Shown here: positions 3,568 to 17,451 of the stretch, one piece after another
Numbering within the stretch: the first letter of the stretch is position 1
How the letters are laid out: each line of letters starts with the position of its first letter
NCBI GenBank assembly: GCA_904502135.1
Contig: CAJGDE010000002.1
Span: forward strand, 1 to 46,840
DNA from: Kiritimatiellia bacterium
GTDB lineage: Bacteria > Verrucomicrobiota > Kiritimatiellia > RFP12 > UBA1067
DNA length: 46,840 nucleotides
Direction of reading: 5' to 3'
The notes under the pieces: model-generated
The model's database searches: none
What the model was told of the DNA's origin: nothing
Seen by the model: the letters and a program-made list of their open reading frames with translations, nothing else
Translations under genes and position numbers: made by a program

Positions 3568-6500
3568 ATGACATTCAAGGGTTTAACCATTTTATCACTG
3601 ACGACTCTGGCGTCGTTCGCTGCCTTTCCTCAAGAGGCTGGCGACAGTGCCGAAGCACCGCCGCCGGAGAATCCAGAACTCAAGGCAGAAATTGCCTACG
3701 TCGAGGCTTTGATAGCCAACGCCTATCCGGATTTCGCTGCTCCCATAATAGAGGCGACAAAGAAAAAGTGGCCTGAAAGCGAAGCTGTCTTTTTTGCTTT
3801 GGAAGTGCGAGGAATGCTCGCGCTCGGTCAGTTTGAGGCGGCTGAAAAATTGATCGCCTCTCTTCCCGACAGAAAAAGCGTCAAGTTCTGGACGGCCAGG
3901 CTTGAGGTCGCTAACAGCCATTACGCCCGCGGACAGATGCAGGAGTGCATGAAGATATATGATGAATTCTTCGTGACGTTCCCAAAACCGCCGAAAGAAA
4001 TATTTGAGTTTTATATGAACGCGTGTTTCACGTACGGGCAGTTGCTTGTGCGCGATAACCGTTTTGAAAAAGCCGCTGAGGCTTACGAAAAGGTTTTGCC
4101 TTCTCTGAAAGGCGAGGCGTGGCTTAATCTTGCGGTTGAAACGGCTGAAATATACATACGCCTTGCCGAAAGCCTTGACGATTTGTCCAAGCGCAAGAAA
4201 TTCCTGCAGTCAGCCGAGGCTATCGTAAACAAGCTTTTGTGGCGTACTGATAAGCCCGTCATCTTCGGCCGCGCCGTTTCCATGAAGGCTCATATCGCGC
4301 AGTTAGGCGGCGATATCGAGAGAGCGAACAAAACGATTGAGGAGCATATTGGAGACCTTGAATCGATTCATGCTCAGATCCTCGAGGTTGATCCTGACGG
4401 CAAATATGGTCTATTGAGAATGTCGCCGCTTCCTCAGTGCCGTTATCTTCAGGCGAAGATGCTTTGGCAGGAGGCGAAAAAACTTTTCGCGACAAAATCT
4501 TCCGCGAGCGACAAGAAGGCTGTCGATGAAAAAATTAAAGATCTCATGTTCGGGCCTCGTGTTAAAGGAAAGCGTCAGGGTTCGCGGGCAGCTTTCAATA
4601 TAGCCACGACCGTGTTTTTGAAATATGAGACTTCCGTCTGGGCGCCTGAGGCGGGAGAACTTTCCGACGAGATTCGCGAGTTCGCCCAAAAGCAGTACGG
4701 CGCCAACATCAAGACAAAGGTTTCCAAAGAGCAGCTCGCCAAGGTGCGCGCGGCGCAATTCAAGTCCGCATGGGAGCTTTTCAATTCTGGCGATTATCTT
4801 AAATCGATCGACGCTTACTTTGAGGTCCTTTCAAAATATCCTGAAAAGCCCGAGTCCGTTGCGGCTGTTGAAAATATAGTGAACTCTTATCTCGATCTCG
4901 TGGTAGAGGCGAAAAGCGAGGAACTGAAAGAAGAGTACCGCATGAATGCGGATGCCGTTTCGGGGTATTTGGCCGAAAGATTCTCTGGTAATGAAGATAA
5001 GGTTATCGTCTCGGAGGCCGGCAACGCCGTTTTGCGCATTGCCGCTAAAGAGGCCGAGCGCAAGCAGAATGACCGCGCCGAGGCGCTTTATGTTCAGTTT
5101 ATTTCTAACTTTAGGTCTCATCCCGTCGCGTCTTCTCTTGCGATGAAAAAAGCGATGGAGTATAAAGAAAAAGAGAATTACTCCGAGGCCATCAGATTTT
5201 TCGGTTTGATTACGCAGTATTACACCAATACCATTCATTACGCCCCGTCTCTTCAGCAGCTTTCCTATTGCCACGGCAAGCTTGGCAACAAAAAGGAAGA
5301 GATTGATTACATGATTTCATATCTGGACGTAGAGACGGTGAAAATCCGCAGGCTTCAGGGCCAGTTCAATCTTGCTCAGATGTACCGTAAGGACGGCGAA
5401 GATATTCTTAACAGCGCCGAGACTAACGCTACGCCAGAAGAAATCGAACTTCAGGAGCGTCGCGGCACGGCTCAGATCATCCTTGCGGTCAAGCAGTTCA
5501 ACCTGTTTTCGGATCAGTCCAAGGCGGCGCTCAACGATCCCGCAACGCCTGAATCAGACCGCGTAAGTTACCGCGCTCTTCACGAAGGAGCGCTGTTTAT
5601 GATCGGCGAATGCTGGAGCCGTATGAAACGCCCCGAGAAGTATCTAAAGATGTATCGCGAACGCGCCGCCGGATGCTACGAGAATTACGTCAAAGAATAC
5701 CCTGAAGGCAAATATGCCAAAACAGGGTTCGTAAAACTCGGAATGATCTATACCGCTCTTGGCGAAGCCGCGAAATCCAAAGACGCCCTTGACCGTCTTT
5801 CCCGCAACTTCCCGGATTCCGACGAGGCGAAAAACGCTAAACCGCGTCTGGCAAAGAGCCTTATTGAAATCGGCATGCGTGAAGAGGGCACTCAGATTTA
5901 TGCCGAGATGCTCCGTACGGACGGCTCGTATTCCGCATATCAATTCCTTAATGCAGGCGAGGCTCTTATTCAGGCGAAGAGCTGGGATCTCGCAAACCAG
6001 GCGTTTGAAAAAGCTATACGCTTAGCAGGCACAAATTCAATCACTACTGTCGCCCGCTCGCGTCTCGGTCAGGCGAAGTGCGCCTGGAAAGAAGGCTCTT
6101 ACGCTCAGGCGAGAGAATCTTTAGACCTCTTCCTGGCGGATGAAAAGATGTCGCGTCTGGCTATCGCCGCTGACGCCAATTTCATGCTTGTTGAAGTGGC
6201 GAGTGAACAGGGCAGAGTCGAGAAAGACAAGAAGTTGAGAGGCCAGTATTTCGGCGATGCTATCAAAGCCTTGAGAAAGGTCCGTCAGTATTGGGGCAAG
6301 AAGCCTCGCTGGGAGCAGGATTCCCTTGAGCTTCTTTCAGGCGACGTTCTTGTAGATCGTATGAAGGCCGAAGAATCGATGGGGCTTAAGGAAGAGGCTT
6401 TGGAGACCTGCGGCCGTGCGGCTTCGACATTCCAGGTATTCCTTCAGAGCCATCCCATTACAGAGGAGCGTCCGATCGACAAATGGGAGAGCGGAGAAGT

Positions 6501-6705
6501 GGCCAACCTCGAAAGAGCTTATTCGTCTATGATACCGTTGTTCAGTCTTATGGGCGCGCAGCAGGCGGACAGAGTTATCAAGTATGGTGAAGAGTATATG
6601 AAGCTCTTCCCTGAGGGCAAATCAAAAACACTGATTGCCAACTGTATAAACAAAGCCAAGGCAGATTTGCCGTCGGAAAAACCGGTTTCCCAAGAAGGAG
6701 AATAA
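3568..6705 (+). CDS. Large secreted TPR-repeat protein (YbgF/CpoB-like repeats)
   Basis: 1045 aa. Signal-peptide-like N-terminus (MTFKGLTILSLTTLASFAAFPQE). All-helical repeat composition with recurring motifs such as FEVLSKYPEKPES, YVKEYPEGKYAKTGFVKLGMIY and LSRNFPDSDEAKNA, which resemble TPR/YbgF repeats. The domain call rests on pattern recognition only. Confidence 0.75.
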   Translation: MTFKGLTILSLTTLASFAAFPQEAGDSAEAPPPENPELKAEIAYVEALIANAYPDFAAPIIEATKKKWPESEAVFFALEVRGMLALGQFEAAEKLIASLPDRKSVKFWTARLEVANSHYARGQMQECMKIYDEFFVTFPKPPKEIFEFYMNACFTYGQLLVRDNRFEKAAEAYEKVLPSLKGEAWLNLAVETAEIYIRLAESLDDLSKRKKFLQSAEAIVNKLLWRTDKPVIFGRAVSMKAHIAQLGGDIERANKTIEEHIGDLESIHAQILEVDPDGKYGLLRMSPLPQCRYLQAKMLWQEAKKLFATKSSASDKKAVDEKIKDLMFGPRVKGKRQGSRAAFNIATTVFLKYETSVWAPEAGELSDEIREFAQKQYGANIKTKVSKEQLAKVRAAQFKSAWELFNSGDYLKSIDAYFEVLSKYPEKPESVAAVENIVNSYLDLVVEAKSEELKEEYRMNADAVSGYLAERFSGNEDKVIVSEAGNAVLRIAAKEAERKQNDRAEALYVQFISNFRSHPVASSLAMKKAMEYKEKENYSEAIRFFGLITQYYTNTIHYAPSLQQLSYCHGKLGNKKEEIDYMISYLDVETVKIRRLQGQFNLAQMYRKDGEDILNSAETNATPEEIELQERRGTAQIILAVKQFNLFSDQSKAALNDPATPESDRVSYRALHEGALFMIGECWSRMKRPEKYLKMYRERAAGCYENYVKEYPEGKYAKTGFVKLGMIYTALGEAAKSKDALDRLSRNFPDSDEAKNAKPRLAKSLIEIGMREEGTQIYAEMLRTDGSYSAYQFLNAGEALIQAKSWDLANQAFEKAIRLAGTNSITTVARSRLGQAKCAWKEGSYAQARESLDLFLADEKMSRLAIAADANFMLVEVASEQGRVEKDKKLRGQYFGDAIKALRKVRQYWGKKPRWEQDSLELLSGDVLVDRMKAEESMGLKEEALETCGRAASTFQVFLQSHPITEERPIDKWESGEVANLERAYSSMIPLFSLMGAQQADRVIKYGEEYMKLFPEGKSKTLIANCINKAKADLPSEKPVSQEGE

Positions 6706-6708
6706 AGA

Positions 6709-7479
6709 ATGACAAAACCATTGATAGTTGCACTGGCAGCTCTTGCCTCAGTTGAATTATGGGCGCTTCCAGGAGTTCTAACGACAGAATCAGAAACTCT
6801 TAAGGGCGACATAAAGTGGCGCGCCAGAACAAAGCAGTACATTATTTCCGTAAAGAAGGGAACTACGATGGTAGACCTTGAGCGCAATCTTGCAGATGTG
6901 GTTTCGCTCGAGCTTCCTAAGCCCGCGGGATATGACAGAGCCGTTCAGCAGGTTGAAGCCAATCAAGGGGCTATGGCCATATCGGTTTTGTCAAAAATAG
7001 TTAGCGACTACCGGATGCTTCAGTGGGATAAACCCGCCGGGCGTTATCTTGCTATGGCGTATATTTCCGCCGATCAGCCTCAGAAAGCTTTGGAAGTCTG
7101 CGAAAAGATCATTTCGGAAGACAAGGCAGCGGCGTGGTCGGGTGAGCTTGCTTCCGCTTATTGGCAGGCACTCATGAGACTTGGAAAAACAGAGAAACTT
7201 CAAGGTCTTCTCAATAAGGCCGCCTCAAGCGGCAGCCGACAGGCTTCGGCCGCGGCTCTTGTCATGCGCGGCGACATCATCATCGCCGCCGCCAACGGCG
7301 CTCCCGACAAGCTTAAGGAAGCTCTTCGCGACGCATATCTCAGAGTAGCGCTCATGTACAACGACGAAGAGTGCGTCCGCGAACGCTCCGAGGCGATGCT
7401 CAAGGCGGCTTCCTGCTTTGAGAAGCTTGGGCAGACGGCTCGCGCCGAAAAACTTAAATCGCAGGCTAAAGCTCTTTAA
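6709..7479 (+). CDS. Secreted protein with a TPR-like C-terminal half
   Basis: 256 aa. AAGGAG SD upstream, starts 3 nt after the previous stop, hydrophobic N-terminus. The helical Ala-rich C-terminal half (e.g. LRVALMYNDEECVRERSEAMLKAASCFEKLGQTARAEKL) looks TPR-like. Confidence 0.65.
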   Translation: MTKPLIVALAALASVELWALPGVLTTESETLKGDIKWRARTKQYIISVKKGTTMVDLERNLADVVSLELPKPAGYDRAVQQVEANQGAMAISVLSKIVSDYRMLQWDKPAGRYLAMAYISADQPQKALEVCEKIISEDKAAAWSGELASAYWQALMRLGKTEKLQGLLNKAASSGSRQASAAALVMRGDIIIAAANGAPDKLKEALRDAYLRVALMYNDEECVRERSEAMLKAASCFEKLGQTARAEKLKSQAKAL

Positions 7480-7518: not shown

Positions 7519-8337
7519 ATGAATAAACTCAGAAAATCAATGTTGGCGGCCGCAGTGTTGGTCGGTACTTGTGTAGCTCCCATGGCGGCTATGCAGTCTT
7601 TTGGACAGGAGTTGACGGACGCAAACGGCAATGTTGTTTCAGATAACGCAGCGCAGACGACCAAATCCAGCGGCGGCTTTTATGAAATCGTTTTCGGCTC
7701 TGGTATAGTAGGTATGCTTTTGTGGTTTGCGCTTTTCGGTGACGGCGCAATGGCAATTTATTTTTCAATCGACTCTTCAATTCTCATCAAGCCCGATAAA
7801 CTCATTCCTAAGCGTCTTATGGATGGTGTTCAGGCCGCGATGGCCGAGGGTGATGTGGTAAAAGCCATGGAGGTTTGTCAGCAGAATCCTTCCGCGATGG
7901 CTTCTATCGTCATGGCTGCGTTCCAGCACATTGAGGAGGGTTTTGAGGCGATACAGGAAGCAGTCAACGCAGCCTCCGATCTCGAACAGGAGAAAATCCA
8001 GCAGCGTCTCAACTGGATTTCCGTTTGCGGAAACTTAGGACCTTCCCTTGGCCTTCTCGGTACGGTGCAAGGTATGATTTTGACGTTCCAAGCGCTTGCT
8101 TCCGGTGGTGCCGGCGATGCTGCGGCGCTCGCTAACTCGATTGGTCAGGCGCTTTGGACGACGGCTGGCGGTCTTATCGTTTCAATTCCGTCAATTACGG
8201 TTTTCTATTCGCTTCGCAATAAAGCCAACAGACTTATTCTCAAAATGATGGCGATGACGATGGAGATCTTGAACGGTCTTAGAAACGTCGCGGTTGAAGG
8301 TGACGGCGAAATGCCGATGGAAGAGGTACAGGCTTAA
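7519..8337 (+). CDS. exbB: MotA/TolQ/ExbB proton-channel family protein
   Basis: 272 aa. Signal-like N-terminus followed by three hydrophobic segments. Family signature region: GNLGPSLGLLGTVQGMILTFQAL...IGQALWTTAGGLIVSIPSITVFY. Confidence 0.9.
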   Translation: MNKLRKSMLAAAVLVGTCVAPMAAMQSFGQELTDANGNVVSDNAAQTTKSSGGFYEIVFGSGIVGMLLWFALFGDGAMAIYFSIDSSILIKPDKLIPKRLMDGVQAAMAEGDVVKAMEVCQQNPSAMASIVMAAFQHIEEGFEAIQEAVNAASDLEQEKIQQRLNWISVCGNLGPSLGLLGTVQGMILTFQALASGGAGDAAALANSIGQALWTTAGGLIVSIPSITVFYSLRNKANRLILKMMAMTMEILNGLRNVAVEGDGEMPMEEVQA

Positions 8338-8840: not shown

Positions 8841-9248
8841 ATGGCGAGAAAAGAGCAGGAGAATCCCGCCCTCGATATGACGCCAATGATTGACGTTGTA
8901 TTTGAGTTGATTATTTTCTTCGTTGTTACAATCAAACAGGAAGATCTTTTTTCAAAGTTGAACGCCAATCGCCCGGCTCCGTCCTCTGGCGCGGCGTCAT
9001 CTGAACAAGATACGACTGTAACCATTGAAGTCGGAAAGGGGCGCGACGCGAACGGCGCTCTCGTTTACAATAAGGCGCCAATAAAACTTAAAGAACTTGA
9101 CAGAAACTTAAAGGAGGTTTCACGTACATCCAAGAAGACTCCAATCGTCATTAGATGTTCAGAAGACAGTCCGCATAAGGCTCTCGTTGACGTTCTTGAC
9201 GTTTGCTATCGAAACCAACTTTTCAGCGTCAGTATCTTTACAATGTAA
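8841..9248 (+). CDS. exbD: Biopolymer transport protein ExbD/TolR, paralogue 2
   Basis: The MARKEQENPALDMTPMIDVVFELIIFFVVT N-terminus is nearly identical at protein level to paralogue 1. The C-terminal region (PIVIRCSEDSPHKALVDVLDVC) is typical of the ExbD periplasmic domain. Confidence 0.9.
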   Translation: MARKEQENPALDMTPMIDVVFELIIFFVVTIKQEDLFSKLNANRPAPSSGAASSEQDTTVTIEVGKGRDANGALVYNKAPIKLKELDRNLKEVSRTSKKTPIVIRCSEDSPHKALVDVLDVCYRNQLFSVSIFTM

Positions 9249-9287: not shown

Positions 9288-11009
9288 ATGAGCGAAGTTA
9301 TGGAAATGGAAGAAACGCTTGAAGGCGAAGAGCTGTTAGAAGAAGAACTTACAGCAGAGGAAATATTTCAGCAGCATCAAGCCGAGATTAACGAGCGCTT
9401 TGAGGAAAAGGGCTTCTTTCGGCGGATGAAAGAAATGTTTCAGGGGCTTTCTATGCCCCGCAGTTCTGCCGAGTATAAACTTGCACGAACAGAACTTCAG
9501 CGCCTCGTTGCTCCGCTTTTAGCTGTTCTTTTGCCGACATTGGGTGTAATAACTCTTATTGTCGTTACCGCTATTACCGGTCAGACAAAAGAGACGATTC
9601 AAATAGATATTGCCAAAGCCGTTGAGGATGAAGCGCCTCTTGAGGACGAAACTCCTCCCGAGGAAATTGAGCCTGAGCCTGTTGATGAGACTGTCGAAGT
9701 AGTAGTAGATACGCCTGTTGTAGGCCCTGTAACGGACGTCGTTGTGCCGCAGGCTACGCCTGTGAATGAGCCTGTCAGCGTAAAGCCGGCAACTCAAGAT
9801 TCTGTAGCTATCATCAAATCTCCCGTCACTATGCGTTCTATGACCGGTTCAAGAACTCCAGGTTCTATCGGTAAATACACAAACGGCGGCGCTGGATATG
9901 GCGATAAAAATACTGAAGCCGCTGTCATGAAGGCGTTGAGGTGGTTTAAGAAAAAGCAGAATAAAGACGGTTCATGGGTGTCGATCGCCGATACGTCGCT
10001 TATCATTTTGGCGTATCTTGCTCATGGCGAAACTCCGGCCTCCGAAGAGTTTGGTGAGACGGTGATGAAAGCTATGCAGTTCTTGATAGATTCTCAGGTG
10101 ATAAAAAACGGGAAGGTTACTTTTAACAAGATAGATGGTCATGAATACACAACGCTTATCGCAACGTACGCGCTTTGTGAGGCTTACGGTATGACCAAAA
10201 ATCCCGTCTGTAAGGAGGCGGCTGAAAAAGCTCTGCAACGCATAGTCGATAATCAGTCCCCCACCGGCGGATGGGATTATAAACTGAACAAGGCTTCAAC
10301 CCGTGACGATTTGTCTTATGGCGGCTGGGCAATTCAGGCGCTTAAGGCCGGTAAGATGGCAGGTCTTCATCCCAAAGGGCTTGATGAATGTATCAAGAAA
10401 GCCATCCGCTGTCTTAAAACGCGCAACTTCAGAAGAGGCGGCTTTAACTATACGGCAGGCGGCGGTCCTACAGGGCTTACGGCGACGGGATGTCTTTGCA
10501 TGCAGTTATTAGGCTACGCGAATCAAAGTGAAGTGACCGAGGCTCTTGACTTCATGCGCAACTGGAAGCCCGGTTTTCAGGCTGTCGCCAAGTCTGCGAA
10601 ACCTCAAGGAGAGCTGCCGGGTTCCGCGCCTCAATACTATTGCTACTATGCCGCTCAGTGCAAGTATCAGGCCGGTATGTGCGAAGGGGCTACCGCTGCA
10701 AACAAGAAGACATGGGTCGAATGGAATGCCGCGATGAAAGCGCTCTATCCGCCTTCGATAATCACTCTTGAAGAGACGATTGAAGGTGTTGACGGAAAGC
10801 CCAAGCAAATCGGCTACTGGAAGGGTGGATATCACAACTCTTATATGGGAACAGCCCTTGTCGCTCTTCAGCTCATGGTTTATTATCGCTACTTGCCTAC
10901 AACTCAGACGAAGGCAGGCAAGGTGGAAAATCACGATGATGCCGAGGTATCTCAGCCTAAGGCTCAAAAAGCCGCCAAGGATGAGGTCGATATCGAAGTT
11001 GATATCTGA
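9288..11009 (+). CDS. Membrane-anchored protein with TonB/TolA-like architecture and a prenyltransferase/terpene-cyclase-like alpha/alpha-toroid C-terminal domain
   Basis: 573 aa, in four parts. (1) An acidic N-terminus. (2) One TM segment (aa 73-97, LVAPLLAVLLPTLGVITLIVVTAIT). (3) A Pro/Glu/Val-rich spacer (aa 112-168). (4) Repeated motifs ALRWFKKKQNKDGSW, ALQRIVDNQSPTGGWDY, SYGGWAIQALKAG and AIRCLKTRNFRRGGFNY, characteristic of prenyltransferase/squalene-cyclase repeats. GGAGG SD upstream. Confidence 0.75.
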   Translation: MSEVMEMEETLEGEELLEEELTAEEIFQQHQAEINERFEEKGFFRRMKEMFQGLSMPRSSAEYKLARTELQRLVAPLLAVLLPTLGVITLIVVTAITGQTKETIQIDIAKAVEDEAPLEDETPPEEIEPEPVDETVEVVVDTPVVGPVTDVVVPQATPVNEPVSVKPATQDSVAIIKSPVTMRSMTGSRTPGSIGKYTNGGAGYGDKNTEAAVMKALRWFKKKQNKDGSWVSIADTSLIILAYLAHGETPASEEFGETVMKAMQFLIDSQVIKNGKVTFNKIDGHEYTTLIATYALCEAYGMTKNPVCKEAAEKALQRIVDNQSPTGGWDYKLNKASTRDDLSYGGWAIQALKAGKMAGLHPKGLDECIKKAIRCLKTRNFRRGGFNYTAGGGPTGLTATGCLCMQLLGYANQSEVTEALDFMRNWKPGFQAVAKSAKPQGELPGSAPQYYCYYAAQCKYQAGMCEGATAANKKTWVEWNAAMKALYPPSIITLEETIEGVDGKPKQIGYWKGGYHNSYMGTALVALQLMVYYRYLPTTQTKAGKVENHDDAEVSQPKAQKAAKDEVDIEVDI

Positions 11010-13726: not shown

Positions 13727-14194
13727 ATGAGCGAATTTGACAGTTTAGCGAACTTATTGCCGCAGGCACATCCGATGATTTTATTGTCGGGCTATAAAAA
13801 TCCGTCTTCACCTGACGAAGTGGAAACATGGGTTGATATTTCGCCTGATTCGCCGTTTTATCTATCCGAGAACTCGGGTGTGCCGGGCTGCGTAGTTTTG
13901 GAATACATGGCGCAGTCGATGGCGTTATGCGTCGGATTTTTGCGGCGCAGTCGCAATCTTTCGCCGAAACTTGGTTTTGTTCTCGGCTCGCGAAAGCTCG
14001 AAATAAAAATACCTTATTTCAAAAACGGCGAGCGTTATCGCATAACAGCTAAGTGTACATATCAAGACGAGTCTTTCGGATCCTTTGATTGCAAGGTTTA
14101 TTCATCGGATGGCGAAGAGGTGGCCGCCGCGCAAATGACGGCTTTTCAACCGGAAGGCGATGTTACAAAAGAAAGTTTGGAGGCATTTTCATGA
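13727..14194 (+). CDS. Hotdog-fold 3-hydroxyacyl-ACP dehydratase-like protein (ApeI/ApeP-type)
   Basis: 155 aa. The N-terminal LLPQAHPMILLSG resembles the LPHxxPMxLLD motif of dehydratases in aryl-polyene-type clusters. Central VVLEYMAQSMAL helix. Sits in an operon with KR and KS. Confidence 0.7.
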   Translation: MSEFDSLANLLPQAHPMILLSGYKNPSSPDEVETWVDISPDSPFYLSENSGVPGCVVLEYMAQSMALCVGFLRRSRNLSPKLGFVLGSRKLEIKIPYFKNGERYRITAKCTYQDESFGSFDCKVYSSDGEEVAAAQMTAFQPEGDVTKESLEAFS

Positions 14195-14913
14195 AACGAG
14201 TGATTGTCACAGGTTCGAGTCGAGGCATAGGCAAAGCTGTAGCTCTCGATCTTGCGCGCAACGGTTACGATCCGGTATTGCATTGTGTTAAAAATAAAGA
14301 TGCGGCCGAGGCTGTCGCTCAAGAATTGCGGGCCTTGGGGCTTACGGGCGATATTTTGCAGTTCGATATCGCAGACAGAGCCATTGCCGAAAAAGAACTT
14401 TCTTCTTGGGTGGCGGAAAACGGAGCTCCCTACGCGGTCGTCTTGAACGCGGGCATAGCCGATGACGCGCCATTCCCCGGGATGGAGGGCGATCAGTGGG
14501 ATCGCGTCATCAGAACTGATCTCGACGGTTTTTACAATGTTTTAAAGCCTCTTGTTCTGCCGATGGTTCAAGCGCGAGCAAAAGGGCGGATAGTGGCGAT
14601 ATCGTCGATCTCAGGGGTGATCGGCAATCGCGGTCAGACAAATTATTCCGCGGCGAAAGCAGGCCTTATCGGGGCTTGCAAGGCGCTTGCGGTGGAACTT
14701 GCGAAGAGAAAGATAACGGTCAACTGCGTAGCCCCCGGCGTCATTGAAACGGAAATGATAGAAGGGATATTCGCCCAGGAGGTTATGAAGGCGATTCCAA
14801 TGCAACGCTTCGGCAAGGTTGAGGAAGTTTCTGCAGTAGTTCGTTTTCTTCTTTCGGAAGAAGCTTCATATATTACACGTCAGGTCATTCAGGTAAACGG
14901 AGGGATGTTCTAA
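14191..14913 (+). CDS. fabG: 3-oxoacyl-ACP reductase (SDR family)
   Basis: Start at ATG 14191 (MKRVIVTGSSRGIGKAVA), overlapping the upstream stop as ATGA. The track ORF start at 14089 is an in-frame extension into the previous gene. Has the NAG motif, the catalytic S...YSAAK, and a C-terminal GQVIQVNGGM. Confidence 0.9.
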   Translation: MKRVIVTGSSRGIGKAVALDLARNGYDPVLHCVKNKDAAEAVAQELRALGLTGDILQFDIADRAIAEKELSSWVAENGAPYAVVLNAGIADDAPFPGMEGDQWDRVIRTDLDGFYNVLKPLVLPMVQARAKGRIVAISSISGVIGNRGQTNYSAAKAGLIGACKALAVELAKRKITVNCVAPGVIETEMIEGIFAQEVMKAIPMQRFGKVEEVSAVVRFLLSEEASYITRQVIQVNGGMF

Positions 14914-16136
14914 TGCGTCGCGTCGTCGTAACAGGTATGGGTATCGTCAGTTCTCTCGGACACTCTATTTCTTCCGCCTACGAGAGATTGAAAACGCTCG
15001 AAAATTGCGTAGAAGCCTCGTTGGAGCTCTCTGAGTACAAAGGGCTTCAGACTTGTCTTTGGGCGCCTTCTAAATTTGTTCGTCCGAGCGAATATACGCG
15101 TAAAGTTGTTCGCACCATGAGTCCTGTTTCCATGATGGCTCTTTTCGCCACAGAAGAAGCTCTTCGCCAGGCGGGTCTTTACGATGATCCTGTCGTTAAA
15201 GGTGGACGGCTGGGTGTAGCGTACGGCTCGTGTTCTGGCGGAGTTGACGCCAACGCTGATTTTTACAGCGTGCTTATGGATCGGGAAATAAAGAACGTTA
15301 CGAGCGCTACGTACATCAAGATGATGTCCCAGACGTGTGCCGTAAATCTGTCAGTTCATTTTGGTACGACTGGCAGACTCCTTCCTACCGGAACTGCCTG
15401 CACGTCAGGGTCTCTAGCCATAGGAGAGGCGTATGAGGCTATAGCTTGGGGACGGCAGGATATGATGATCGCCGGAGGCGCTGAAGAGTTTAGCGCTACA
15501 CAAGTCGCCGTTTTCGATACGCTTTTTGCGACGTCTCGCCGGAACGACAGGGCGGACACGACACCGAGGGCCTTTGACAAAAACAGAGACGGGCTTGTCG
15601 TCGGCGATGGAGCGGCCACTCTCATTCTCGAAGAAAGAGAACACGCTCTTCAAAGAGGCGCGACCATCATTGCGGAAATCGCTGGTTTCGGAACAAATAC
15701 GGACGGCCGTCATGTAACCCAGCCAAGCGCGGTGACGCAGGCTCGGGCAATTATGTTGGCGCTTGAGGACGCTGAACTTTCGCCAAGTGACATCGGTTAT
15801 GTAAACGCCCACGGTACGGCTACCGAGCTTGGGGATATCACGGAATGTGAAGCGCTTAAGAGTGTCTTCGGAGAGACGAGCGTGCCGATAAGCACGATAA
15901 AGAATTATACAGGCCATACTCTCGGCGCTTGCGGAGCGATAGAGGCGGCTATGACAATTGAGATGCTGCGCAACGGCTGGTATGCGCCCAATCTAAATCT
16001 CGACGAGGTTGATCCCCGGATAGAAGGTCTTGATTTTATCAGGGGTTCTGGCAGAGTTATCGATACGGAATTTGCGATGTCCAACAATTTTGCTTTCGGC
16101 GGTGTCAACACTTCTCTTATTCTGCGCAGAGCATGA
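14913..16136 (+). CDS. Beta-ketoacyl-ACP synthase (KAS I/II type, Cys-His-His)
   Basis: 407 aa. Active-site Cys in GTACTSGSLAIGEA, His residues in NAHGTATELGD and YTGHTLGACG, and a C-terminal NNFAFGGVNTSLIL. The start overlaps the fabG-like stop as TAATG. Confidence 0.92.
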   Translation: MRRVVVTGMGIVSSLGHSISSAYERLKTLENCVEASLELSEYKGLQTCLWAPSKFVRPSEYTRKVVRTMSPVSMMALFATEEALRQAGLYDDPVVKGGRLGVAYGSCSGGVDANADFYSVLMDREIKNVTSATYIKMMSQTCAVNLSVHFGTTGRLLPTGTACTSGSLAIGEAYEAIAWGRQDMMIAGGAEEFSATQVAVFDTLFATSRRNDRADTTPRAFDKNRDGLVVGDGAATLILEEREHALQRGATIIAEIAGFGTNTDGRHVTQPSAVTQARAIMLALEDAELSPSDIGYVNAHGTATELGDITECEALKSVFGETSVPISTIKNYTGHTLGACGAIEAAMTIEMLRNGWYAPNLNLDEVDPRIEGLDFIRGSGRVIDTEFAMSNNFAFGGVNTSLILRRA

Positions 16137-16735
16137 AACGTTATCTGACATTATCGGCATGCGCTGTTTTAAAAAGCGCTGAGAGTTTGGATGTGAAGTT
16201 TGTGCCGCCTTTGATGCTCAGGCGATTGTCCGCGCTTCAGAAGATTTATTTCCATCTGGCGAAAGCTGTTGAAAAAAATCCCGCCGCAAGCACTGTTTTT
16301 TCGTCGCGTGACGGTGAAGATTCGTTAACGCGCCGTCTTGTGGATGAGTTTCATGAAGAGGCAACCGTCTCACCGCATCGCTTCAGCGCGTCGGTCTATA
16401 ACGCGGCTCCCGGGCTTTGGAGCGTTTATACCAAAAATCGTGCGCCGTACACGGCCGTTGCCGCAGGGGAAGACTCCATCGAGTGCGGTCTTTTGGAGAT
16501 TCTCGGCGATTCCGGAGCGCGTATGTTTGTCTATGCCGAGGAGACGGGTGGAGGTTACGGTGCTTCACTTTTCTTTGATGACGATCCTTCCGGGCGAAAA
16601 CTTGTTGTCACCGGCGGAGATCCTTCAAGAAAGTCCGTGACGTTTACCGATCTTTGCGATTTTATTTCAGGAGCCAAAACGTCTCTTGACGGACGGTGGA
16701 TTACTATAAAGGATGCCGCATGCGAAGAGCGGTGA
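16133..16735 (+). CDS. KS-like protein lacking the catalytic Cys (chain-length-factor type, Ketoacyl-synt_2-like)
   Basis: 200 aa. SPHRFSASVYNAAPGLWSV resembles the SPxxFxxSVHNA motif of KS N-terminal-like partners in APE-type clusters. There is no C-H-H triad. ATGA overlap with the KS gene. Confidence 0.65.
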   Translation: MKRYLTLSACAVLKSAESLDVKFVPPLMLRRLSALQKIYFHLAKAVEKNPAASTVFSSRDGEDSLTRRLVDEFHEEATVSPHRFSASVYNAAPGLWSVYTKNRAPYTAVAAGEDSIECGLLEILGDSGARMFVYAEETGGGYGASLFFDDDPSGRKLVVTGGDPSRKSVTFTDLCDFISGAKTSLDGRWITIKDAACEER

Positions 16736-17451
16736 TGATTTACCGCTCTGCGGTCGCGCTTGTCCTTTTCGCGTTTTTCGCTCTCGGCGGACTTCTTGTT
16801 TCTCCGTTGATGATCGTCTTGCGCTCGCCAAGACTTTGTCAGCCGATAGTCCGCAATCTTTGGGTGATGCTGGTCTGGCTCTTTAAAGCGCTCGGAATTA
16901 TAGGCGTTGAATTCCCATGTAAGATAAATAACCTTAGAGGCTGCATTATCGCCGCGAACCATCCTTCTTTGATTGATGTTGTTCTAGTAACGGCATTGTT
17001 TCCCCGAACATTGTATGTTGCCAAAGCCGCGCTTTTGAAAAATCCGTTCTTGTCCGCCATAGTTCGCCATACGTCGTTACCGGTGGATGAGCGGCTTGTA
17101 GATGCGGTTGTGCCGTATTTGAATGACGGTTGGAACGTTCTTGTTTTCCCCGAAGGCACGCGCTCCGCTCCAACAGGACAGATGCAGGAATTTCACCGTG
17201 GTATCGCGCAACTTCTTTTGCGCACGTCATCTTCATTGGTGTGTCTTGGGATAAACGTTTCGCGTACGATTCTATCAAAGAATCAAAAGCCGTGGGATAT
17301 GGGCGAAAAGAGGGTCGTATATTCCTTCAGGGTTGATTCTCCCACCAGTCATGTGCCCGATAATGCTCGCGCTCTTCGCCCTCAGGCCATAGCTCTCACG
17401 AATGAGATTAGGCGAAGGATTGACAATCTAAGAACAACAGTACATAATTGA
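16720..17451 (+). CDS. Lysophospholipid acyltransferase family (PlsC/LPLAT) protein
   Basis: HX4D motif NHPSLID and FPEGTRS motif; two N-terminal hydrophobic segments. The start is uncertain. The ATG at 16720 has AAAGGA 6 nt upstream. Alternatives are a GTG at 16696 (ORF track) and an ATG at 16735, which overlaps the CLF stop. Confidence 0.85.
   Translation: MRRAVMIYRSAVALVLFAFFALGGLLVSPLMIVLRSPRLCQPIVRNLWVMLVWLFKALGIIGVEFPCKINNLRGCIIAANHPSLIDVVLVTALFPRTLYVAKAALLKNPFLSAIVRHTSLPVDERLVDAVVPYLNDGWNVLVFPEGTRSAPTGQMQEFHRGIAQLLLRTSSSLVCLGINVSRTILSKNQKPWDMGEKRVVYSFRVDSPTSHVPDNARALRPQAIALTNEIRRRIDNLRTTVHN

Follow-up and report, generated by a model that had tools for sequence, protein, structure and literature searches.

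The DNA under study (the window) is a stretch of 46,840 nucleotides, positions 1 to 46,840 of contig CAJGDE010000002.1 (GenBank assembly GCA_904502135.1), from a Kiritimatiellia bacterium. It contains a gene that directly follows an exbB-exbD-exbD run on the same strand, 39 bases after the second exbD, and its 573-residue product is built in the manner of TonB and TolA but ends in an (α/α)6 toroid. An earlier note, made from the letters of this DNA, had pointed to this position and had suggested a periplasm-spanning protein that is energised by the proton-motive force and has a ligand-binding or catalytic toroid for its working end. The open reading frame (ORF) and the Pfam assignments of its upstream neighbours bear out the arrangement, and that reading is supported by the sequence comparisons presented here: most likely, this toroid-headed protein with its variant membrane anchor is a force transducer of the envelope of a kind not described before. 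The features of the locus are collected in the following table.

Table. Features of the toroid gene, of its module and of neighbouring genes in the window (TM, transmembrane; TPR, tetratricopeptide repeat; pLDDT, predicted local distance difference test)
Feature	Position	Strand	Basis
Toroid-headed, TonB/TolA-shaped protein, whole gene	9288-11009	+	ATG start, 573 aa
Juxtamembrane region (cytoplasmic) and TM helix, aa ~28-97	9369-9578	+	Family alignments, column counts, AlphaFold
Beta-strand-like motif IQIDIAKA, aa 104-111, candidate "motor box"	9597-9620	+	Pattern common to both subfamilies
Acidic Val/Glu/Pro-rich linker of low confidence, aa ~112-204	9621-9899	+	pLDDT, composition
(α/α)6 toroid, terpene-cyclase/prenyltransferase-like, aa ~205-535	9900-10892	+	AlphaFold, Foldseek, profile match
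Disordered spacer and extreme C-terminal acidic tail ...DEVDIEVDI-COOH	10893-11006	+	Motif counts
Module gene 1, large TPR protein of the periplasm (1045 aa) that starts with a signal-peptide-like sequence	3568-6705	+	Multiple TPR Pfam matches
Small secreted TPR-like protein, ~256 aa, module gene 2	6709-7479	+	Weak TPR matches
ExbB/TolQ-like subunit of a pentameric stator (ExbB/MotA family)	7519-8337	+	PF01618, E 4e-25
Signal-peptide-like start and extra segment of the ExbB-like protein	7519-7700	+	
ExbD/TolR-like subunit 1, likely start ATG giving MAKKAQENP...	8342/8354-8839	+	PF02472, E 2e-19
ExbD/TolR-like subunit 2	8841-9248	+	PF02472, E 4e-22
Aryl-polyene-type-like lipid cluster	13727-17451	+	
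Pal-like OmpA-family lipoprotein, ~180 aa	20398-20940 (ORF from 20353)	+	

The earlier note had divided the protein into four parts, all of which are present. The acidic N-terminus (aa 1-60) contains 17 Glu and has a net charge of -11, the hydrophobic TM segment LVAPLLAVLLPTLGVITLIVVTAI occupies aa 73-96, the Pro/Glu/Val-rich spacer (aa 98-168) comprises 15 V, 12 E and 11 P at a net charge of -15, and the C-terminal region shows repeats of the A-L-x-W-x-K-x-x-Q-x-x-D-G-S-W type. What had been overlooked are a conserved juxtamembrane motif, the strand-like motif at aa 104-111 and the acidic C-terminal tail. Two AlphaFold2 models were calculated; the first, from 32 close homologues, has a mean pLDDT of 64, and the second, from 147 diverse ones, a mean pLDDT of 80 and a predicted TM-score of 0.70. 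Both contain cytoplasmic helices at residues 23-37 and 43-54 and a long helix at 61-97 that holds the TM segment (pLDDT 72-95 in the 147-homologue model), and in both the linker, roughly aa 101-184, is of low confidence (pLDDT about 30-56). About 12 main helices follow across the toroid with a pLDDT of about 95 in the model from 147 homologues, and the tail is disordered. A single N-terminal TM helix is found in 218 of 220 diverse full-length family members. As had been expected, neither Pfam nor NCBIfam profiles detect a TonB_C (PF03544) or TolA domain in the 573-residue protein, and the modelled fold contains none; likewise Pfam finds no von Willebrand A (vWA) domain, the modelled fold being helical.

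The toroid that the earlier note had expected is recovered by structure prediction, and Foldseek searches against the PDB returned exclusively (α/α)6 toroids (E 6e-6 to about 5e-4; TM-score 0.5-0.62 on the target, rmsd 6-10 Å). The matches include single-domain squalene-hopene cyclases (8paj/8pak), the squalene-hopene cyclase 1sqc and MstE as well as AGE-family sugar epimerases, GH76 mannanases, the thioester-containing domain (TED) of alpha-2-macroglobulin and C3. The beta subunits of farnesyl- and geranylgeranyltransferases are matched too, weakly (target-based TM-score 0.43-0.54). A single toroid of ~330 residues is modelled, and the two-toroid beta-gamma architecture of cyclases is absent. 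At the sequence level the cyclase-like repeats named in the earlier note are real, and a profile of 18 family members reaches squalene-hopene cyclase 1gsz with E 3e-15 via the repeated motif, but in Pfam the window protein alone stays below threshold (SQHop_cyclase_C, 23.8 bits where the gathering score is 26.1). PF13243 and/or PF00432 are among the precomputed Pfam domains of many homologues. By sequence affinity the toroid is thus assigned to the terpenoid-cyclase/prenyltransferase superfamily, a close structural relative being absent. Some family members (P0453, P0341) also match the Pfam family DUF6288 (PF19805), P0453 over its toroid region with E 3e-7 and just above the gathering score, which ties the toroid family to another uncharacterised Pfam family.

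The 147-sequence alignment, with identities of 30-71%, contains 19 invariant positions, among them Q224, W230, H246, Y287, E298, Y331, D341, W347, Q350, Y453, Y454, Q457, W479 and W511. Such a polar and aromatic set is of the kind expected for a ligand pocket, as far as can be judged from conservation. Cysteine does not occur among the invariant positions of this alignment. The window protein contains no D.DD, and no conserved D.DD column exists in the 147 sequences; similarly, the thioester motif CGEQ is absent from the window protein and from all 147 aligned members. Class II terpene cyclase function was rejected for the lack of DxDD and macroglobulin thioester function for the lack of CGEQ, and prenyltransferase function is doubtful because no Cys is conserved. 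We therefore take the toroid to be either a head that binds a ligand or an enzyme of some other chemistry, not a terpene cyclase. Public databases list homologues as “terpene cyclase/mutase family protein”, [quoted passage not shown] or “hypothetical protein”, and the cyclase and prenyltransferase names, if taken as enzymology, are probably misleading.

From these data two other functions of the toroid have to be considered. The first would be a macroglobulin- or complement-like thioester domain that serves, anchored in the inner membrane, as protease trap or covalent adhesin. The structural and profile matches to the TED domains of alpha-2-macroglobulin, C3 and TEP1 that suggest it are weak (the 18-member profile, too, matches TEP1 and alpha-2-macroglobulin weakly) and do not surpass the matches to other toroids, accompanying macroglobulin domains are missing, and the absence of CGEQ effectively refutes this proposal, which we regard as hardly credible. 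The second, which is the main rival of the transducer reading, would be a membrane-tethered periplasmic enzyme with an (α/α)6 active site acting on a glycan, peptidoglycan or a polyprenyl or other lipid substrate. It would not be driven by the motor, and its co-transcription with ExbBD would be explained by regulation or assembly. Invariant H246, E298 and D341 together with many Tyr, Trp and Gln resemble an active or sugar-binding site, and the top structural neighbours (AGE-family epimerases, GH76 mannanases, cyclases, prenyltransferase beta subunits) are enzymes. These structural matches are generic at the scores given above, however, and neither DxDD nor a complete conserved set of zinc ligands nor a curated enzyme family above threshold (Pfam, NCBIfam) is found. 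On balance an unpowered enzyme of this sort appears unlikely, and both the gene neighbourhood and the anchor bear on it further. The enzyme and transducer readings could also be combined in an enzyme that is coupled to the motor.

In an exhaustive search of 1.84 billion representatives the window protein matched 8008 clusters at E <= 1e-3 and, at the stricter limit of E <= 1e-30, 439. Among the matches are many proteins of 510-570 residues that align to query aa ~30-545, which means that conservation covers the whole architecture, and not the toroid alone, down to about 33% identity. The members that carry a taxon name belong to Kiritimatiellae, to Lentisphaerae (Lentisphaeria, Victivallales, Oligosphaeraceae) and to metagenome-assembled genomes (MAGs) labelled Verrucomicrobiota. 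In a scan of one genome per species 434 loci encode a relative; the best 80 of the 434, which were examined, all lie on Kiritimatiellae-type contigs of gut or rumen origin and show 50-85% identity. ORFs were called in these loci and then searched with the window proteins, which gave 79 informative genes. The synteny with exbB and exbD that the reading of the earlier note required holds: the toroid gene lies directly after ExbD in 72 of these 79 close homologues, and the complete set TPR-TPR-ExbB-ExbD-ExbD precedes it in 54 of the 60 close loci whose upstream sequence extends over 6.2 kb or more.

The same order recurs in more distant lineages of the Planctomycetes-Verrucomicrobia-Chlamydiae (PVC) group, for which ten contigs were looked up individually; that of P0211 is just 2.4 kb long, and the other nine are informative. 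In four of the nine the module surrounds a homologue with about 30-45% identity to the window protein. In a Lentisphaerae locus (L084, protein P0341) the order is TPR1013, TPR275, ExbB, ExbD, ExbD, toroid, second toroid, MutL; in a Verrucomicrobiota MAG (L085, P0354) ExbB, ExbD, ExbD, toroid, MutL, toroid, toroid; in a Kiritimatiellia locus (L086, P0300) the six-gene module is followed by MutL; and in a metagenome contig (L087, P0340) by a second toroid and MutL. Two or three tandem toroid copies thus stand beside one motor in L084, L085 and L087. The large TPR gene is also found upstream in L084, L086, L087 and L090, and a protein of ~250-275 residues fills the second slot of the module in L084, L086, L087, L089 and L090. 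The conserved core therefore consists of six genes, i.e. those for the large TPR protein, the ~250-residue protein, ExbB, two ExbDs and the toroid protein. Downstream of the toroid gene or genes the lineages differ: in the non-gut loci L084-L087 mutL is found there, often with a YdjY-family gene and serS behind it, whereas the gut and rumen clade (window, L003-L081) has lolCE-lolD instead. This split means that the lol linkage is clade-specific and outside the conserved module.

In two loci (L042, 6617-7807, and L047) about 1.2 kb separate exbD2 from the toroid gene; the insert of L042 contains an ORF of up to 396 residues that looks glycosyltransferase-like by eye and does not show the layout of TM anchor, spacer and head. 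Several module-bearing contigs (L009, L014, L028, L029, L032, L038, L044) sit in bins named after foreign taxa (Alistipes, Methanomethylophilaceae, Faecalibacterium, Gemmiger, Barnesiella, Lachnospira, Azospirillum) and almost certainly represent binning errors in public MAGs.

The association with the motor is far tighter than that with any metabolic gene, which speaks against an enzyme that is simply tethered, whereas paralogues without adjacent ExbBD would suit it. Such orphans are found among the close homologues (L045, L070, L072, L074, L077, L079 and the first copy in L082) and among the distant ones (L083 with P0225 and L088 with P0316, both at about 30-45% identity, and L091 with P0395). 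Four genomes contain a motor-linked and an orphan copy side by side (L061/L070, L057/L072, L056/L074, L011/L079). The orphans L070, L072, L074, P0225, P0316 and P0395 keep the anchor motif of their own subfamily, and L077 matches neither anchor profile. Since orphan TonB paralogues share one motor, we count those orphans that retain the anchor motif in favour of coupling.

Across its juxtamembrane region and TM helix the anchor carries the conserved motif FEEKGFFRR...GL..PRSS.EYK.A..ELQRL.AP..A...P. TonB (S16/H20) and TolA (S18/H22) engage ExbB and TolQ, respectively, with an SxxxH motif, the first half of the so-called SHLS motif, in their TM helix. Direct reading of the window protein confirms the earlier remark that this motif is missing, its TM helix containing no His at all. 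SxxxH does lie within the TM helix in 20 of the 220 diverse full-length members, and a search with one protein (P0261) led to a large subfamily from Lentisphaerae and Kiritimatiellaeota with the same toroid and tail, in which all 114 full-length matches contain SxxxH within their first 110 residues and 104 of the 114 contain G[PA]xxSxxxH. In the alignment of 147 sequences S and H occupy the aligned TM columns in 60 sequences, or 60 of the 68 of this sister type. The remaining 79 sequences, to which the window protein belongs, are of an AxxxP type with Ala in the S column (A79) in 65/79 and Pro in the H column (P83) in 78/79. Both anchor types align column for column and have E/D62, Y63, R/K67, L73 and P76 in common, while R72 is invariant in the subfamily of the window and mostly His in the SxxxH type. 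Hidden Markov models built from the two types cross-match each other. Together with the columnwise alignment this means that the window protein carries a derived or alternative form of the TonB/TolA-like anchor. Judged from the aligned columns, the same helical face is constrained in both types.

SxxxH-type proteins have a shorter N-terminus and lack most of the cytoplasmic region, yet they are encoded in the same gene module, as in L089 (P0431: TPR358, a 247-residue protein, ExbB, ExbD, ExbD, toroid) and L090 (P0457: TPR1273, a 251-residue protein, ExbB, ExbD, ExbD, toroid). P0395 (L091) is of the same type and is an orphan with no adjacent motor genes. This sister anchor within the same operon is, in our view, the most telling result in favour of a putative coupling to the motor. 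It also argues against a simple tether, for which a conserved anchor homologous to SxxxH, a spacer of ~100 residues and a conserved tail would be needless. Equally it bears on the idea of transmembrane signalling, according to which the toroid would sense a ligand and the acidic cytoplasmic N-terminus would relay the signal to a cytoplasmic partner by a logic similar to that of anti-sigma factors or TonB-dependent transducers. A cytoplasmic region of ~70 residues with two confidently predicted helices and the motif FEEKGFFRR...EYK is far longer than the stub of TonB and TolA and would fit a relay. Against this stand the SxxxH proteins, which dispense with most of that region within the same module, and the neighbours, which are TPR and motor genes: none of the conserved genes next to it in the loci examined codes for a sigma factor, a kinase or a regulator. 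Signalling is thus a very unlikely function.

Beyond the anchor several linear motifs are conserved. The sequence IQIDIAKA lies 7-14 residues past the TM helix and follows a pattern phi-x-V-x-phi-(E/D)-P that is common to both anchor subfamilies. Of 147 members, 110 have a phi-x-phi-x-phi pattern in the first 32 residues behind the TM helix, compared with 46 in the next 32 residues. The motif resembles the motor box, a beta-strand located right behind the TM helix that was reported for 93% of 113 validated TolA sequences, was suggested for all TonBs and is thought to touch the ExbD/TolR dimer (PMC12204202). The segment in front of the toroid, aa 166-195 with the pattern KPA.QDSV..IKSPV.M....GSR.PG..G, is conserved though poorly modelled. 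At the other end 157 of 220 diverse members (71%) and 78 of 114 SxxxH-type proteins have a tail motif [DEN][ILV]x[ILV]x[ILVFMT] within their last 14 residues, compared with 97 of 1629 control ORFs (6%). Extended peptides and acidic C-terminal ones are ligands of TPR domains, and the beta toroid of prenyltransferases has an alpha subunit of helical hairpins wrapped around it. By analogy the two co-conserved TPR proteins are candidate partners for the tail or for the segment preceding the toroid.

Of these two proteins the large one gives sub-threshold NCBIfam matches to YbgF/CpoB (69.8 bits) and BamD, and for the small one a sequence search against solved structures revealed no useful relative. 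The ExbB-like protein is nearer to TolQ (8odt, E 6e-9) than to ExbB (5sv0, E 7e-6) by sequence, and TolQ and TolR are the top-ranked NCBIfam models for the motor genes, though far under their cut-offs. It contains Thr in LGLLGTVQGM and in ALWTTAGGL, presumably at the channel positions known for the E. coli proteins TolQ and ExbB. It starts with a signal-peptide-like sequence (MNKLRKSMLAAAVLVGTCVAPMAAMQ) and has an extra segment of ~40-50 residues before its first TM helix; N-terminal extensions are also found on some ExbB proteins of other bacteria. Both ExbDs contain Asp in their TM segment (MTPMIDVVF; the segment of ExbD1 reads MTPMIDVVFELIIFF), presumably the proton-carrying Asp of ExbD/TolR. 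Over the cytoplasmic juxtamembrane and TM stretch (ENPALDMTPMIDVVFELIIFFVVT; 8342-8440 and 8841-8939) the two are identical in amino acids, and their periplasmic domains differ. The pair co-varies between genomes, with PALD in the window and PQLD in L042 (5823-5921, 6294-6392). Recent gene conversion was rejected as the cause since the DNA differs at many synonymous sites; this suggests that selection keeps the two TM helices identical while the periplasmic domains differ.

Further downstream in the window, after the toroid gene, lie lolCE and lolD and, just after these, a small HNH gene and ruvC, an aryl-polyene-type-like lipid cluster with an ApeP-like dehydratase, a short-chain dehydrogenase-type ketoreductase, a ketosynthase, a ketosynthase-like partner (Ketoacyl-synt_2) and an acyltransferase. 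A Pal-like lipoprotein with the signal MKFSTMMTVFALALCVAGC is encoded ~9 kb downstream of the module; among the window ORFs scanned against Pfam none was recognised as TolB-like.

Taking these data together, we consider it rather probable that the protein is an ExbBD-coupled transducer, anchored in the inner membrane and spanning the periplasm, with the toroid as its head; this judgement is drawn from sequence comparison, structure prediction and synteny. The toroid protein would take the role of TonB or TolA with another head and would be powered by the co-encoded ExbB5-ExbD1/ExbD2 proton motor. By homology of the anchors its N-terminal helix would dock on the outer side of the ExbB pentamer, using the face that holds S and H in TonB, in TolA and in the sister subfamily and that is formed here by A79, P83 and invariant R72. 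The strand-like motif at aa 104-111 may pair with the periplasmic domains of ExbD in the fashion of a motor box, and the linker of ~100 residues, which is acidic, Pro/Val-rich and disordered, would span the periplasm. The toroid would then bind a ligand near the cell wall or the outer membrane, for which the fold and the conserved set of His, Glu, Asp, Gln, Tyr and Trp are available, and the acidic tail and perhaps the pre-toroid segment would be linear motifs bound by a partner, the TPR proteins being the likeliest.

Several observations weigh against this transducer reading. The window protein lacks the very motif that defines docking of TonB and TolA. The motor-box signal is moderate (75% versus 31%) and AlphaFold models no strand at aa 104-111. 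Motor adjacency is not obligatory, with orphans amounting to 7 of 79 close and 3 of 9 informative distant homologues. Finally, the invariant His, Glu and Asp with their aromatic companions, as well as the structural neighbours, fit an enzyme equally.

As to the physiological role of the proposed transducer, we favour by analogy Tol-like maintenance of the envelope over TonB-type nutrient import. This preference follows from the housekeeping-like nature of the module, from the stator that leans towards TolQ, from the CpoB/BamD-like TPR partner and from a lineage reported to be without TonB and TolA: in Tichowtungia aerotolerans (Kiritimatiellota) neither TolA nor TonB is recognisable (PMC12204202). 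For Kiritimatiella glycovorans genes for TonB-dependent polysaccharide uptake were reported to be missing (PMC5148204), but a Pontiella genome lists TonB-related Pfam matches, which means that the phylum is not uniform. A bolder and doubtful, though conceivable, extension is that the six-gene module replaces Tol-Pal in Kiritimatiellota and Lentisphaerota, with a TolQR-like motor pulling the toroid, which may grip a cell-wall glycan, an outer-membrane lipid or isoprenoid or an outer-membrane protein, and with TPR proteins holding the tail. If this were true, the switch from SxxxH to AxxxP would represent a second, previously unseen docking mode of a transducer helix on the ExbB/TolQ pentamer.

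To our knowledge, TonB_C and TolA-III, which are homologous to each other, are the only natural heads established by experiment for trans-periplasm motors of the ExbBD/TolQR type. The vWA head was put forward in 2025 from genomic evidence. A second non-canonical head would make anchor plus spacer a general chassis for different effectors. The toroid candidate is large, is widespread in two PVC phyla and exists with and without the SxxxH anchor. It provides a concrete candidate for the coupling of inner-membrane energy to the outer envelope in diderms that lack TolA and TonB, and the paired SxxxH and AxxxP subfamilies constitute a natural experiment on what a transducer helix needs for engagement with the stator.

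The earlier note had known of no functional description of such a transducer. For the toroid head this stands, as no description of a toroid-headed ExbBD partner was found in the literature searched, where prenyl, terpene, squalene, cyclase and toroid proteins are absent from the text of the vWA transducer study (PMC12204202) and the MotAB survey (mBio 2025) leaves toroid-type proteins unmentioned. For heads other than TonB in general it does not stand, since putative vWA-headed transducers of PVC and other bacteria, encoded in PVC bacteria in TPR-tolQ-tolR-tolR operons, were published in 2025 and proposed as a new class of force transducers (PMC12204202, Mol Biol Evol 2025). The lineage of Tichowtungia, without recognisable TolA and TonB, is among those in which they were found (PMC12204202). 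The present module resembles theirs in the succession of a TPR gene, one tolQ-like and two different tolR-like genes and, finally, a protein composed of TM helix, disordered linker and globular head (PMC12204202). Their head has the Rossmann-like von Willebrand A fold, whereas that of the window protein is an all-helical toroid, and their family was described with the SHLS motif that the window protein lacks (PMC12204202).

With class II cyclases and prenyltransferase beta subunits the protein has in common the (α/α)6 toroid and repeats of the type A-L-x-W-L-x-x-x-Q-x-x-D-G-S/G-W, and its likeness to the single-domain cyclases 8paj, 8pak and MstE is limited to size, with one toroid instead of a two-domain structure. 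It differs from these enzymes in having neither DxDD nor an invariant Cys for the Asp/Cys/His triad of zinc ligands (H246, E298 and D341 are invariant), in the periplasmic location of a toroid held on a TM anchor by a long spacer, and in a gene context that is a proton motor and not isoprenoid metabolism. In comparison with TonB and TolA, the ~90-residue alpha/beta domain (TonB_C/TolA-III) is replaced by a toroid of ~330 residues, A79 and P83 stand in the anchor where those proteins have S and H, the cytoplasmic region is long (~70 residues) and conserved, and the conserved acidic C-terminal tail has no counterpart. Nevertheless, the toroid protein shares with both of them a gene position directly after the stator genes, a single-pass N-terminal anchor, a putative short beta-strand-like motif, a long Pro-rich or disordered spacer and a globular C-terminal head, it shares with TonB the occurrence of orphan paralogues alongside one motor locus, and its sister subfamily possesses the SxxxH anchor motif of TonB and TolA themselves.

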